Part shown: positions 36,986-42,931 of the stretch, piece by piece
Layout of the letters: each line of letters opens with the position of its first letter
Numbering within the stretch: the stretch's first letter is position 1
DNA from: Escherichia coli
GTDB taxonomy: Bacteria > Pseudomonadota > Gammaproteobacteria > Enterobacterales > Enterobacteriaceae
Reading direction: 5' to 3' (one strand)
Assembly: GCF_003018255.1 (NCBI RefSeq)
Contig: NZ_CP027440.1
Length of the DNA: 64,000 nt
The notes under the pieces: model-generated
Seen by the model: only the letters and a program-made list of their open reading frames with translations
What the model was told of the DNA's origin: nothing
Databases searched by the model: none
Program-made: the position numbers and the translations under genes

Positions 36986-37798
36986 TCAGCACTCAACAAA
37001 CTGATGCTGTTCATTAAGGCGATAGCGGACTCCGGCTCGAATATTGTTTTCACCTTCAATGGCGACGGCGAAGCGAACTCTTTCGCCGTCATGATATGCC
37101 AGTGCGGCGCTTCCCCCTGGCCCGAGAATAATTGAGTCGACCACGCCCGTGCTCACTATTGTTGAATCTTCACCGCTGGCAATGATGTGTACATTGTCGC
37201 CGCTGTTGGCAATTCTGGCGTTTGCGCCAAAGCTGGCGATTTGCACCAGGTCACCATTACTGGCGACATGACATCGTTCACCCAATGTACAAACGCGTAC
37301 TCGCATTCCGGTATTCGCAATCCGACTGCTATCTCCAGCGCTGCTTATCCGCGAAGAATTACCGGTTACAGCAACCCGTGCGCGTTCACCGGAGCTGCCA
37401 ATGTGACTGTTAAAGCCGACACTTCCAATCCGCACGCTATAACCCATACTGGCAATTTGCGCGGCATACCCAGCGGTTGCGATTCTGGCATTATCCTCAC
37501 AACAGCCGATGCGAGCATGATCGTCGCTGCGGGCAAACTGACTGCAAAATGCTCTCTCTCCGGGATCTGTGGCCAGTTTTTGCATAGAAGAAACTTCCTG
37601 ATGCGCGAAGTTTTCATCCGCCAGCCATTTTTTCCACGCATACTCAACCAGACTCTCCGCCCAGTCCGTATATCCTTCCTCAATCAGTGCATGATGAATA
37701 TCGGCATAACTACCGCCGCGTGGGAAATGGCGCAGAAACCAGCGATACATCACCGCTCCGATACGCCATTCTCGCAGGTCTGCTCGTGTAATGATCAT
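36986..37798 (-). CDS. ydhT: beta-solenoid-like nonapeptide-repeat protein, last gene of ydhYVWXUT
   Basis: 270 aa ORF; residues 93-227 form 15 consecutive 9-residue repeats (e.g. DNARIATAG, NSSRISSAG, DSSRIANTG, ANARIANSG); recognised as YdhT. Confidence 0.85.
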   Translation of the reverse strand: MIITRADLREWRIGAVMYRWFLRHFPRGGSYADIHHALIEEGYTDWAESLVEYAWKKWLADENFAHQEVSSMQKLATDPGERAFCSQFARSDDHARIGCCEDNARIATAGYAAQIASMGYSVRIGSVGFNSHIGSSGERARVAVTGNSSRISSAGDSSRIANTGMRVRVCTLGERCHVASNGDLVQIASFGANARIANSGDNVHIIASGEDSTIVSTGVVDSIILGPGGSAALAYHDGERVRFAVAIEGENNIRAGVRYRLNEQHQFVEC

Positions 37799-37801
37799 TC
37801 G

Positions 37802-38587
37802 TTAGTGCCGGTGATAGCCATCGACCATGCTTTTAAAGGTTTCGTGTGGCGTACGCCCCGTGGTGCAAAGATAAAGATGACCGAAGATAAAAAAGAGGCT
37901 TATAAATGCCAGAGCAAAATGCGCCTGCAATAACCAGTATCTTACGCCAGGAAACATATCTCCCACGGCTTGCGGATAGAGACACAGCAGCCCCGTCAAT
38001 AGTAACAATGGCAGCAATCCATACATGACACCAACATAGGCGACCTGCTGTAAGGGATTAAATTTAGACTGGGTTGTTGCCGGGAAAGGATGTTCTTCCC
38101 CCTGCATAATGCCAAACAAATAGAATCGCGTTTGTTTTGCCGCTCGCTCCAGCCCCCCCTGACGACGAATGCGATAGTGGTGACCATTACCCCCAACGGC
38201 ATTGATCAGAACAAAGCCGAGCCAGCATGCCAGTAACAAAAATCCGCAAACTTCATGCACCGCAACCAGACTTTTAACCGTAGTTGCGCCCACCAGCGCA
38301 AAGTGATTTATCAGCCCACTTGCCAGCAACAATACAAAGAGTAACGCATTCGACCAGTGCCATAATCTGACCGCTTTGCTGTAAAGATAAACCTTCTCAC
38401 CATGGTCGTTGGCTGATTTCTTCACGCCACGAGCACGAAGCAAGGCATGCAGCCCCAGCACCAACCACATCCCTACCAGCAATAGTCCGGCAATGATCAA
38501 CCACACCGGCCAAAATTGGGGAGTGAACAGTGGCACATAGTTCGCCAACTGGCTCTGAAACTGTTCAGCATGTTGCGACGGGTTCAT
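37802..38587 (-). CDS. ydhU: PhsC-like cytochrome b-type membrane subunit
   Basis: 261 aa multi-TM ORF with conserved His residues; 3 bp from ydhT and 4 bp overlap with ydhX; recognised as YdhU. Confidence 0.85.
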   Translation of the reverse strand: MNPSQHAEQFQSQLANYVPLFTPQFWPVWLIIAGLLLVGMWLVLGLHALLRARGVKKSANDHGEKVYLYSKAVRLWHWSNALLFVLLLASGLINHFALVGATTVKSLVAVHEVCGFLLLACWLGFVLINAVGGNGHHYRIRRQGGLERAAKQTRFYLFGIMQGEEHPFPATTQSKFNPLQQVAYVGVMYGLLPLLLLTGLLCLYPQAVGDMFPGVRYWLLQAHFALAFISLFFIFGHLYLCTTGRTPHETFKSMVDGYHRH

Positions 38588-39252
38588 ACATTTTCCTTTT
38601 TAATCAAATGTTGACCGAACCGGCGATACAGGTGCGGTTTCCCGGCACCAGGTAGCTGATATTGATAGTATTTATTTTCCTGCAACCACGCCTGAATTTC
38701 TGGGCTATCTTCGCGACCAAAGATCAATGCGTGTTCCGGACAGGCGCTGACGCAAATGGGCGGAAAGCCTTTTGCCAGTCGGGACTCAGCGCAGAAATCA
38801 CATTTATCTGCCACTTTAGTGACAGGGTTAAGGTAGCGAACCTGGTAAGGACAAGCGCCAATGCAATAACTGCAGCCGATGCACTGCGATTTTTCTACCC
38901 GCACGATCCCCTGCTCATCACGCCACGACGCCCCTGTCGGGCAAACGTCGATGCAAGGAGCATCTTCACAGTGCTGGCATGACTGGCGAAAAAAGTGATA
39001 CTGCGTTTCGTTGTCGTTATCGGTGACTGGAATGTGTGCTATCGATAAACGGCTTCCCTGAGCGGGGACGTGGTTAGTTTTACGGCATGCGCGGGCGCAA
39101 ATATTACAGCCATTGCACCGTGACTCGTCATGAATCATGGCATACCGAACTTTCTTTTCTTGCATCGTGTTCGCTAACAGAGAAGACGCAGAACCAGTAA
39201 AAAAGATTACTGTTCCCATCCCCAGAACAAATTTGCGTCGAGTGAAGGACAT
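38584..39252 (-). CDS. ydhX: Tat-exported 4Fe-4S ferredoxin-type subunit
   Basis: ORF track 239 aa; internal start MSFTRRKFVLGMG... (twin-arginine motif) gives 222 aa; four Cys-cluster motifs including CQHCEDAPCIDVCP and CIGCSYCIGACP. Confidence 0.85.
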   Translation of the reverse strand: MSFTRRKFVLGMGTVIFFTGSASSLLANTMQEKKVRYAMIHDESRCNGCNICARACRKTNHVPAQGSRLSIAHIPVTDNDNETQYHFFRQSCQHCEDAPCIDVCPTGASWRDEQGIVRVEKSQCIGCSYCIGACPYQVRYLNPVTKVADKCDFCAESRLAKGFPPICVSACPEHALIFGREDSPEIQAWLQENKYYQYQLPGAGKPHLYRRFGQHLIKKENV

Positions 39253-39315
39253 CTGATTATCCCCTAATGCAGTGGCTGCTACTGTCCACCCTATCCATGA
39301 CATCTCCCTGAAATT

Positions 39316-42069: not shown

Positions 42070-42089
42070 GATTTTTTCCTTTGCAAGAT

Positions 42090-42716
42090 TCACACAGTAA
42101 TATCTTTCCACTCGATAATTTTTAACGCCCCTGTTGGGCAGGCGTTTGCGCATTCACCGCATAACACACATTTCGAGGATTTTTTACTTTCGGTATTTAC
42201 GGTGGCCATCATCCACGGGCATGCCGTAGTACAGGCGCTACAGCCAATACAACGTTTATGATCGACGGTAATACAGCCTTCTTTCTGCTGCCAGGTAATC
42301 GCACCAATCGGGCAGACGTTCATGCATTGCGGCTCTTTGCATTGACGGCAGGTGTCCGCGGTATAGTTGAGATCGCCATACAGGCCGCCACCAGAGCCAA
42401 CCCCGTTATCGCCAAAGAAATAATTGCGATGGATTTTGATACGGGAGAAGAATGTCCCTACTGAGCCATCGTTGAAGTTGGTACAAGAGATTTCACAGCG
42501 GTGGCAACCCGTGCATCGCGCACGATGGGTCACCAGCACCCCTTTGGGTGTATTTATCAAGCCTACTGTGCCGCTATCAATATCTTCCTGTTTGCAACCC
42601 AAAAGTGACAGTAACGCAGGGGCAATTGTTAAACCAGCAAGGCCTTTTCCTGATATACGCAAGAATTCTAATCGCGTTAAGCCAATATTTAATAGTGGAC
42701 GATCAACCGGGTTCAT
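42090..42716 (-). CDS. ydhY: 4Fe-4S ferredoxin-type protein, first gene of ydhYVWXUT
   Basis: 208 aa ORF with four Cys-cluster motifs (CTGCHRCEISC, CRQCKEPQCMNVCP, CIGCSACTTACP, CVLCGECANACP). Confidence 0.88.
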   Translation of the reverse strand: MNPVDRPLLNIGLTRLEFLRISGKGLAGLTIAPALLSLLGCKQEDIDSGTVGLINTPKGVLVTHRARCTGCHRCEISCTNFNDGSVGTFFSRIKIHRNYFFGDNGVGSGGGLYGDLNYTADTCRQCKEPQCMNVCPIGAITWQQKEGCITVDHKRCIGCSACTTACPWMMATVNTESKKSSKCVLCGECANACPTGALKIIEWKDITV

Positions 42717-42917
42717 TTATTTCGCATCCTCTTCGCAAACACAGTGCTGACAATTCAGCAGCCTGATATTAGGCACTCAACTAATACGCTGCTGACTCTG
42801 TCCTCAACACCAGATATTTTCCCTAACCCAATAGTGTATGAGAAAAGATTTAACGCTGATAAACTAATCCTTTATGGTTAGGAGAAAAAATAATGTGATT
42901 ATTCTGGGCTCTTAACA

Positions 42918-42931
42918 TTGATCGTTATCAA
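42918..42931 (-). promoter_or_regulatory. FNR (CRP/FNR-family) binding site upstream of ydhY
   Basis: Perfect match TTGAT-CGTT-ATCAA to the FNR consensus TTGAT-N4-ATCAA, about 200 bp upstream of the ydhY start in an AT-rich region. Confidence 0.7.

Follow-up and report, generated by a model that had tools for sequence, protein, structure and literature searches.

The closest described relatives of the ydhYVWXUT operon, which occupies positions 36986-42931 (minus strand) of a 64,000-nucleotide stretch of Escherichia coli DNA (contig NZ_CP027440.1, assembly GCF_003018255.1; hereafter the window), include: (i) the Class V WOR enzymes, exemplified by CsWOR41LSW of Cetobacterium somerae, (ii) BamB, the nearest characterised relative of the catalytic subunit YdhV, (iii) the thiosulfate reductase PhsABC of Salmonella, Citrobacter and Proteus, and (iv) the FdnGHI and NrfCD-type complexes. 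The locus has been known and studied since about 2005, and the original prediction, made from the window, is a correct re-identification of an orphan operon that is among the last respiratory-type molybdoenzyme operons of E. coli without an assigned substrate. In a classification of June 2026, YdhV belongs to clade 41 ('Class V WOR'), for which no activity or physiological role had been assigned (PMC13328260), in line with the predicted impossibility of reading the substrate from sequence; Class V WOR relatives account for ~10% of an enzyme family with 4,000 members and occur commonly in gut bacteria. While the re-finding of the locus adds nothing new, the comparison described here contributes a 3 + 2 + 1 decomposition of the operon, the paralogy of its quinol module to PhsBC, a predicted fold for YdhW, the phage kinship of YdhT and a correlated redistribution of twin-arginine motifs, the last being the sole surprising element. 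The operon is proposed, with moderate confidence, to encode a membrane-anchored, periplasm-facing, anaerobic menaquinol:X reductase that is nitrate-repressed and formed under iron-replete conditions, and in which X is probably a low-potential, non-aldehyde substrate.

The L, S and W proteins of CsWOR41LSW correspond to YdhV, YdhY and YdhW, are encoded in the same order and share 59% (V), 42% (Y) and 34% (W) identity with the E. coli proteins at the Cetobacterium locus (L013). A Tat (twin-arginine translocation)-like N-terminus on the S subunit is common to both systems; the E. coli type differs by the addition of YdhX-YdhU and YdhT and by an S subunit with a one-arginine motif. The metal preference is also distinct, with molybdenum (Mo) for E. 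coli and tungsten for Cetobacterium (PMC13328260). The Cetobacterium orthologue is inactive on 46 aldehydes, expression of the L and S genes without W yielded only L, which was inactive, and the role of the third gene was called unknown (PMC13328260). BamB resembles YdhV in its AOR-family fold and, as reported, in the Cys ligand to the metal and the absence of an aldehyde-type second shell (PMC12096430). By contrast, BamB is cytoplasmic, tungsten-dependent and part of the electron-bifurcating BamBCDEFGHI complex with a coenzyme A thioester substrate, whereas Ydh is predicted to be extracytoplasmic and quinol-linked.

The B and C genes of PhsABC are ordered as ydhX and ydhU, with a 4-bp stop-start overlap in both loci, and encode a cytochrome b of the same five-transmembrane (TM) architecture and conserved His residues, with a likely common mode of quinol coupling. 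In Ydh, the AOR-family pair YdhY-YdhV replaces PhsA, the catalytic subunit with a molybdenum-bis(pyranopterin guanine dinucleotide) (Mo-bisPGD) cofactor; PhsB has no signal, whereas YdhX has its own twin arginine, and ydhW and ydhT are extra genes. The Phs enzyme of Salmonella reportedly reduces an acceptor of about -400 mV with menaquinol at the expense of the proton motive force (pmf), and Phs is reportedly reversible. The FdnGHI and NrfCD-type complexes share three tiers with Ydh, namely a Tat-exported catalytic part, a four-cluster ferredoxin and a membrane quinone/quinol subunit. Ydh differs from both in its catalytic family and in having two ferredoxins in series, and its electron flow is probably opposite to that of Fdn.

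A composite operon of three parts

The genes of the operon, in order of transcription, are as follows.

ydhY, 42090-42716, minus strand: WorS-type ferredoxin with four [4Fe-4S] motifs and an N-terminal Tat-derived signal
ydhV, 39967-42069, minus strand, ATG start at 42069: AOR/WOR-family catalytic subunit (clade 41, Class V WOR)
ydhW, 39316-39954 (RefSeq) or 39316-39963 (an in-frame ATG at 39963 is possible), minus strand: acidic protein, predicted tandem winged helix
ydhX, 38584-39252 (RefSeq), minus strand: PhsB/NrfC-type ferredoxin with four [4Fe-4S] motifs
ydhU, 37802-38587, minus strand, RefSeq name phsC: PhsC-type membrane cytochrome b
ydhT, 36986-37798 (RefSeq), minus strand: N-terminal five-helix domain and predicted beta-solenoid, Enterobacterales only, phage-related

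The six co-directional open reading frames (ORFs) were found exactly where predicted and are 100% identical to the annotated ydhT, ydhU, ydhX, ydhW, ydhV and ydhY of E. coli JNE23-011, as is the whole 7-kb region. The region is present in 5425 of 5426 complete E. coli genomes, with a coverage of at least 80% at an identity of 95% or higher in 5404 of them, and the ratio of nonsynonymous to synonymous substitution rates (dN/dS) is 0.016-0.10 across the six genes, which indicates purifying selection on each. The spacing departs from the 3-18 bp first given: the gaps are 20 bp (Y-V), 3 bp or, with the RefSeq start, 12 bp (V-W), 63 bp (W-X), -4 bp (X-U, an overlap) and 3 bp (U-T). The W-X gap would be 12 bp only if the long ydhX ORF were used; the MSFTRRK codon at 39252 is preceded by a better Shine-Dalgarno sequence, and a stop codon of E. 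albertii interrupts the upstream extension, which is also unconserved in Proteus and Budvicia. Thus, the true ydhX start is at 39252 and the gap is 63 bp.

A YdhV search of 1.84 billion representative proteins provided a clade alignment and, from it, 79 genomic loci, with about 90 loci compared overall; co-occurrence was scored by tblastn with the six E. coli proteins, and ORF calling gave spurious antisense ORFs in high-GC loci. The Y-V-W core is noted in Enterobacterales, Cetobacterium (Fusobacteria), Clostridia, Spirochaetes, Coriobacteriia, Deltaproteobacteria, Nitrospira and Chloroflexi, and the YdhW cluster is present in 59 loci. YdhX, YdhU and YdhT occur together by tblastn only in Escherichia, Citrobacter, Budvicia, Proteus and Brenneria of the Enterobacterales. 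Context look-ups add operons with X and U (X-U-type) that are without T, in Telmatospirillum and two metagenomic lineages, and one further X-U-type operon with T. By sequence comparison, the E. coli operon is a composite of a Class V WOR core (Y-V-W), a PhsBC-like quinol module (X-U) and a further gene (T). The genes of the predicted six-gene module are thus all present, but the build is 3 + 2 + 1 and YdhT is probably not a redox subunit. The Class V WOR enzymes are defined by WorL, WorS, at least one further subunit and membrane association; in the E. coli operon, these are supplied by the Y-V-W core together with X and the five-TM U. For co-expression, Y-V-W is the smallest conserved unit; published attempts with V alone or with V and Y failed.

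The catalytic subunit, the quinol module and the direction of electron flow

YdhV is of the AOR family, as predicted, with a score of 1373 bits to NF007354 (cutoff 868), matches to the AOR, FOR and BamB structures of the PDB at E values of 1e-43 to 1e-59, and a match of the clade profile to BamB at 3.9e-68. The orthologues have the AFOR_N (PF02730) and AFOR_C (PF01314) domains, and YdhV has no signal peptide. Two sets of putative cofactor ligands are located as follows.

YdhV C307-x2-C310-x3-C314, 41128-41151, minus strand: [4Fe-4S] ligands, invariant in alignments of 21 and 10 sequences
YdhV Cys336, 41062-41064, minus strand: proposed BamB-like protein ligand of Mo, invariant in the 10-sequence clade alignment

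C558 is likewise invariant in the 21- and 10-sequence alignments and is probably the fourth [4Fe-4S] ligand. Cys336 is described as a metal ligand like that of BamB, and the second-shell residues of AOR are absent (PMC12096430). In the profile alignment, the counterpart of Glu313 of AOR (Pyrococcus furiosus numbering) is a small or neutral residue located three positions ahead of Cys336 (His448 was unaligned), such that YdhV is without the Glu expected of an aldehyde oxidoreductase sensu stricto; RefSeq uses aldehyde oxidoreductase as the product name of ydhV. YdhV binds a redox-active bis-Mo-molybdopterin (MPT) cofactor, according to papers that cite Reschke 2019, and no substrate has been found in published work. 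Aldehydes, which were among the candidate substrates first suggested, are disfavoured: the substrate of YdhV is probably not an aldehyde, because the metal ligand is reportedly BamB-like, the AOR second shell is reported as lacking, Glu313 of AOR is unmatched in the alignment and 46 aldehydes were inactive with the Cetobacterium orthologue.

By sequence, the X-U pair is closely paralogous to PhsBC. YdhX shares 52% identity with Citrobacter PhsB over the mature part, with 29 extra N-terminal residues that form the Tat signal; it has four Cys motifs, and its best NCBIfam match is NrfC (250 bits, below the cutoff). YdhU belongs to NF011582 (451 bits, cutoff 204), also matches PF01292 and FdnI, and is 55% identical to true PhsC, in agreement with the predicted PhsC-like cytochrome. 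Five TM segments are found by hydropathy, and His77, His111, His223 and His237 are conserved in PhsC and are candidate ligands for two haems; family membership, TM number and His residues are thus those of a PhsBC-type quinol module. The second homologue group of YdhU, at ~55% identity, includes a member in a canonical Citrobacter phsA-phsB-phsC operon (L081).

A thiosulfate reductase of the PhsABC type has PhsA encoded with B and C, and no PhsA-like ORF is found within 36986-43170. The RefSeq/PGAP name of ydhU ('phsC, thiosulfate reductase cytochrome B subunit') over-reaches, as there is no phsA here and the true PhsC is a paralogue at a separate locus. Stand-alone YdhX-YdhU-like pairs were also observed at L089 (5337-6798) and L090 (1381-2827), each a ferredoxin with a twin-arginine signal and a PhsC-type cytochrome b; no Y, V, W or PhsA is near these pairs, and one of them is beside CcmF- and CcmH-like cytochrome c maturation genes. 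The pairs look like free-standing quinol modules for periplasmic partners.

In the proposed reductase, quinol would be oxidised by YdhU, the five-TM cytochrome b of the PhsC type, which probably binds two haems and would relay electrons to YdhX, a PhsB-type four-cluster ferredoxin that would be exported by its own twin-arginine signal. From YdhX, the electrons would pass to YdhY, the second four-cluster ferredoxin, and then to YdhV, with its one [4Fe-4S] cluster and Cys-ligated Mo-bis-MPT, for the reduction of a periplasmic non-aldehyde substrate. Since YdhV is without a signal, it would leave the cytoplasm folded, as the passenger of YdhY and/or YdhX. YdhW would be a cytoplasmic factor needed for Y-V assembly or targeting, while YdhT, co-transcribed in Enterobacterales, would reside outside the electron wire. 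Gene content, homologies, signals, co-occurrence and purifying selection come directly from the analysis; the order and direction of electron transfer, the pmf coupling (by homology) and the parts assigned to YdhW and YdhT are inferred. A quinol-coupled redox complex with Tat hitch-hiking had been suggested from the window and finds support in the PhsB/PhsC paralogy, the twin arginine of YdhX, the signal-less YdhV and the literature. As X-U is a PhsBC paralogue and the nearest characterised relative of YdhV is the low-potential BamB, Ydh probably acts on a low-potential substrate, and by analogy to Phs the pmf may assist the reduction. The input module therefore points assays to a low-potential, possibly pmf-dependent periplasmic reduction, not to aldehyde oxidation.

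The reductase direction is favoured because of repression by nitrate and nitrite combined with FNR activation, the BamB-like non-aldehyde active site and the kinship to Phs. The flow may alternatively be reversed, with YdhV oxidising a periplasmic substrate (an aldehyde or a reduced sulfur or organic compound) and Y, X and U relaying the electrons to the quinone pool to generate a pmf, as in formate dehydrogenase-N. The characterised members of the YdhV family are mostly aldehyde oxidisers, YdhU is of the same PF01292 type as FdnI, and the reported reversibility of Phs would also fit; nevertheless, reversal is considered unlikely, as the 46 aldehydes were inactive, the BamB-like active site is without the AOR second shell, and repression by nitrate and nitrite (in papers that cite Partridge 2008) is the pattern of low-priority reductases and not of Fdn-like donor dehydrogenases.

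Several points weigh against the proposed reductase. The pmf coupling is borrowed from Phs by homology, the hitch-hiking on YdhX is putative, and two four-cluster ferredoxins in series are unusual. Neither this analysis nor the literature examined provides a substrate, an activity or a localisation for any Ydh protein, and ydh expression in K-12 MG1655 was under the detection limit in one study. The single-Arg motif makes it doubtful that E. coli YdhY is export-competent on its own, YdhW may act not as a chaperone but as a stoichiometric subunit, and YdhT, which has the same position in all enterobacterial operons, a dN/dS of 0.06-0.10 and shared regulation, may have a role in the complex. In addition, four loci of Deltaproteobacteria and Nitrospira (L061, L064, L068 and L075) link Y directly to a cytochrome b, with no X. 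These loci have the order Y-U-V-W, a four-TM cytochrome b, a YdhY with the twin arginine kept and a YdhW without N-terminal extension, and represent a simpler three-tier version of the complex.

YdhW and the twin-arginine motifs

YdhW is acidic, as predicted (isoelectric point of 4.5), and has no match in Pfam-A, the PDB or PHROG. Its AlphaFold model, built on a 52-sequence alignment, has a mean predicted local distance difference test score (pLDDT) of 92.1 and predicts two consecutive winged-helix domains, with the N-terminal 40 residues poorly predicted; a search of AFDB50 returns only the YdhW family itself. DNA binding is unlikely at this isoelectric point. A chaperone of the TorD/DmsD/NarJ or NapD type was considered and ruled out by the model, which is a tandem winged helix and neither an all-helical nor a ferredoxin-like fold. 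No signal peptide is present on YdhW in any lineage, and its dN/dS indicates evolution about 5-6 times faster than that of YdhV and several-fold faster than that of V, Y and X. FdhD and TatC genes (above NCBIfam cutoffs) and a MoeA-like gene (best match, below cutoff) follow Y-V-W in Cetobacterium, Clostridia and Spirochaetes. At eight Coriobacteriia loci, ydhW is apart from Y-V and is immediately followed by a gene for a protein of ~205 residues, the scaffold domain of which is NifU/IscU-like but scores below the NCBIfam cutoff. Genes for membrane regulators of the LuxR type and for a Mo-bisPGD enzyme with a Tat signal are near the Coriobacteriia ydhW.

We infer that YdhW acts in the cytoplasm as an assembly or targeting factor, and that it is structurally of a new type, because it is signal-less, acidic, fast-evolving, modelled as a tandem winged helix and encoded beside FdhD/TatC/MoeA-like or NifU-like genes. 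YdhW might instead be a stoichiometric third structural subunit of the Y-V enzyme that, for example, shapes the substrate channel. Its co-occurrence with Y-V is as strict as that of a subunit, and the Cetobacterium L and S proteins without W gave only inactive L (PMC13328260). This role is improbable, however, as no orthologue has a signal peptide while Y-V is predicted to be extracytoplasmic, dN/dS is about 5-6 times that of YdhV, and the Coriobacteriia gene is next to a NifU-like gene and away from Y-V.

The N-termini of YdhY, YdhX and YdhW bear on the proposed export of the complex, and their relevant features are listed.

YdhY residues 14-20 (T-R-L-E-F-L-R), 42657-42677, minus strand: Tat consensus with the second Arg replaced by Leu, from orthologue comparison
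YdhY residues 38-41 (L-L-G-C), 42594-42605, minus strand: conserved lipobox-like end of the hydrophobic region (h-region)
YdhX twin-arginine signal MSFTRRKFVLGMGTVIFFTGSASSLLA, 39172-39252, minus strand: predicted, with motif, h-region and A-x-A-like cleavage site
YdhW residues 22-26 (K-R-Q-W-L), 39886-39900, minus strand: basic Tat-consensus-like motif in a lineage-specific, low-pLDDT N-terminal extension

YdhY is a member of NF007382 (434.7 bits, cutoff 213) and is only 28% identical to PhsB; its four Cys-cluster motifs were predicted and are located at residues 68-78, 123-135, 156-166 and 183-193. Its N-terminus contains LTRLEFLRISGKGLAGLTIAPALLSLLGC. The reading of this N-terminus as a degenerate Tat-like signal with one Arg is borne out by the orthologues outside X-U-type operons, all of which are canonical: the twin arginine ([ST]-R-R-x-F-L-K) is present in 63 of 63 YdhY from operons without X that have a complete N-terminus. 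By comparison, the 12 enterobacterial YdhY with a complete N-terminus all have T/S-R-L-E/D-F-L-R, and those of other X-U-type operons have R-Q, R-K or R-L, for a total of 16/16 single-Arg YdhY in X-U-type operons vs 0/63 in others. E. coli YdhY has neither the consecutive arginines nor the R/K pair expected of a Tat substrate. The description of Class V WOR enzymes includes a twin-arginine signal and/or a TM segment in WorS; E. coli YdhY keeps the Tat frame and the h-region but has R-L in place of R-R. Elsewhere in the signal (T-R-x-E-F-L-R frame, h-region and L-[LF]-G-C), conservation from Escherichia to Proteus equals that of the mature protein. The h-region of many of the X-less YdhY ends with L-x-G-C, a box of the lipoprotein type, and L-[LF]-G-C is found in all enterobacterial YdhY and in ~11 orthologues of Clostridia, Spirochaetes or Varibaculum. 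As a putative lipobox, L-L-G-C would be atypical at position -2, and its +2 residue is Lys, which is not an inner-membrane retention signal. Based on the twin arginine of all 63 X-less YdhY and on the FdhD, TatC and MoeA-like neighbours, the ancestral enzyme was likely extracytoplasmic, with YdhV exported as the passenger of YdhY.

The twin-arginine signal predicted for YdhX (start MSFTRRKFVLG) is kept in every orthologue: [ST]RR[KQ]F is present in 13/13 enterobacterial loci, at L083-L086 and in the stand-alone X-U pairs. YdhX is also listed as a predicted Tat substrate (PMC7549933). The YdhW extension exists only in X-U-type operons and has no h-region. Its motif, [KR]R[RKQNH][WFLI][LFI], is found in 16/16 X-U-type YdhW vs 0/47 others, with one of the 16 (KRHWL of a Citrobacter, L004) scored by eye, as the automatic pattern missed the His. 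The sequences are KRQWL in E. coli and Citrobacter, SRRRWLLPL in Proteus, SKRRLLLPL in Brenneria, RRRLF in Budvicia, GRRRFLRL in Telmatospirillum, and GRRRIFLF, SRRNLFMPL and VRRKLLF in metagenomic lineages. The loci with the motif include L009, L012, L027 and L083-L086, and the motif co-varies with the lost second Arg of the YdhY signal.

Among the sampled sequences, the correlation has no exception (16/16 vs 0/47 for YdhW and 16/16 vs 0/63 for YdhY), and nothing comparable was found in the literature examined. One speculative and rather unlikely explanation is that the Tat determinant has been redistributed in X-U-type Ydh, with one Arg left in YdhY, an RRxFL-like peptide without h-region in YdhW and a canonical twin arginine in YdhX, maybe as a new device for ordered export. 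In one possible variant, the twin-arginine motif would be provided in trans by YdhW, or imitated by it, which would make the YdhW peptide part of a split signal or a decoy for proofreading; in another, Y and V exit only as passengers of YdhX. The correlated rearrangement provides a specific hypothesis on the Tat targeting of multi-subunit enzymes that can be tested by mutagenesis.

The replacement of the twin arginine by R-L, R-Q or R-K in every X-U-type YdhY would also suit a cytoplasmic Y-V in these organisms, tethered to the inner membrane face by the hydrophobic N-terminus of YdhY, with a di-haem YdhU that conducts electrons across the membrane to or from a periplasmic YdhX; the candidate His pairs of YdhU would place a haem near each membrane face. 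Such a topology is very unlikely, as it leaves YdhX without a periplasmic redox partner, the remaining YdhY signal is as conserved as the mature protein (which argues for its continued use in export or processing), and PhsB-type subunits dock their catalytic partners periplasmically in the homologous Phs.

Regulation of the operon and the YdhT protein

A decayed, cryptic operon with no current function in E. coli, to which the undetected expression in MG1655 in one data set, the lack of a fitness defect of a ydhX mutant in a mouse model (PMC7549933) and the degenerate Tat motif of YdhY would be consistent, is barely credible, as 5404/5426 genomes have intact ORFs at an identity of at least 95%, FNR, Fur, Nar and sigma-S exert a tight control and the dN/dS of 0.016-0.10 in every gene effectively refutes it. 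The promoter region includes the following features.

Strong terminator-like hairpin after fumD, 43139-43167, minus strand: stem of 12 pairs and a T-run, delimits the ydh transcription unit on its upstream side
Candidate Fur box, 42966-42984, no strand assigned: 14 of 19 consensus matches; a score of at least 14 is reached at only 9 positions in the 64 kb
FNR box TTGATAACGATCAA of the ydhY promoter, 42918-42931, minus strand: TTGAT-N4-ATCAA, the only perfect FNR box in the window
Candidate -10 hexamer CATTAT, 42890-42895, minus strand: the transcription start is placed near 42882 from an FNR box at -42.5

The predicted module ends at 42931, which is the first base of the FNR box. The ydh operon is directly activated by FNR, with a site at -42.5 and a chromatin immunoprecipitation (ChIP) peak (PMC3688515), and is a direct target of Fur, with a ChIP peak and Fur-dependent expression (PMC7157518). 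Transcripts from ydhY through ydhT are at 0.07-0.25 of the wild-type level in a fur mutant (4- to 14-fold lower), independently of ryhB (PMC7157518, supplementary table). Thus, Fur promotes expression and the six genes move together. The Fur-box-like site is the best of the region upstream of ydhY and is ~40-60 bp upstream of the FNR box, a position that would suit activation rather than repression, consistent with the lower expression in the fur mutant. The operon is also regulated by NarL/NarP, with repression by nitrate and nitrite, according to papers that cite Partridge 2008, and is preferentially transcribed by the sigma-S holoenzyme in vitro. The regulation is best explained by an operon that is expressed only when conditions are anaerobic (FNR), iron-replete (Fur-dependent) and free of nitrate and nitrite (NarL/NarP).

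A role in iron acquisition, which was prompted by the presence of ydhV and ydhY in the Fur iModulon with iron-uptake genes, was dropped, as expression tracks iron repletion in the fur mutant data. No NarL heptamers were detected in the promoter by a strict TACYYMT search. The ~166-nt 5' untranslated region, in which a riboswitch or structured leader such as the Moco motif was sought, has a fold z-score of only -1.4, and no Rfam match was obtained at E values of 1 or lower across 36700-43450.

YdhT, predicted to be a repeat protein, has 15 nine-residue repeats.

YdhT residues 96-230, 37109-37513, minus strand: 15 tandem nine-residue repeats (x-I-x-S-x-G-x-x-x), predicted from sequence and model to form a solenoid

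The YdhT model (pLDDT of 92.6) predicts a five-helix N-terminal domain followed by the beta-solenoid; its fold matches are generic only, and the repeat number differs among orthologues. The PADLOC models gave no match for YdhT or YdhW. Database homologues of YdhT are restricted to Enterobacterales, and YdhT is absent from every non-enterobacterial Ydh operon in the loci compared. By tblastn against phage genomes, end-to-end homologues are found in the early regions of temperate phages, and include gp55 of the lambdoid Edwardsiella phage GF-2 (33% identity, E value of 1e-57), encoded between an N-like antiterminator and cIII, and phiKX1_180, encoded after an antirepressor gene in the Komagataeibacter phage phiKX1. 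The phage proteins share with YdhT the N-terminal helical domain, the nine-residue repeats of the ARIGSSG type and the C-terminal LGxGGxA...DGxRxRF...EGE motif, but differ in having no redox context. YdhT is best described as a domesticated phage-family gene that rides on the operon, and is probably not part of the electron path; its probable irrelevance to catalysis guides the choice of knock-outs.

In Citrobacter (L003-L006 and L011, about 1130-8470), a tetrathionate respiration cluster is immediately upstream of ydhY, with ttrA, ttrC and ttrB on the opposite strand together with ttrS and ttrR; TtrA, TtrB, TtrC, TtrS and TtrR are all above NCBIfam cutoffs. This adjacency may mark the junction of an island or hint at the chemistry of sulfur compounds. 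At the downstream end of the E. coli operon, ydhS (plus strand) and ydhT (minus strand) converge, with stop codons 5 bp apart (36980-36986 of the window), and the sole terminator-like hairpin for the ydh transcript, at 36763-36780, is inside the coding region of ydhS; the ydhS/ydhT pair is a candidate excludon (PMC12288877). A copy of ydhT at 98% identity is also contained in CP025887.1 (18751-19560), a 23-kb unannotated record named 'Escherichia phage 503046'; the record probably stems from a prophage prediction with misplaced limits that took in chromosomal ydh DNA, in which case the copy is not carried by a phage.

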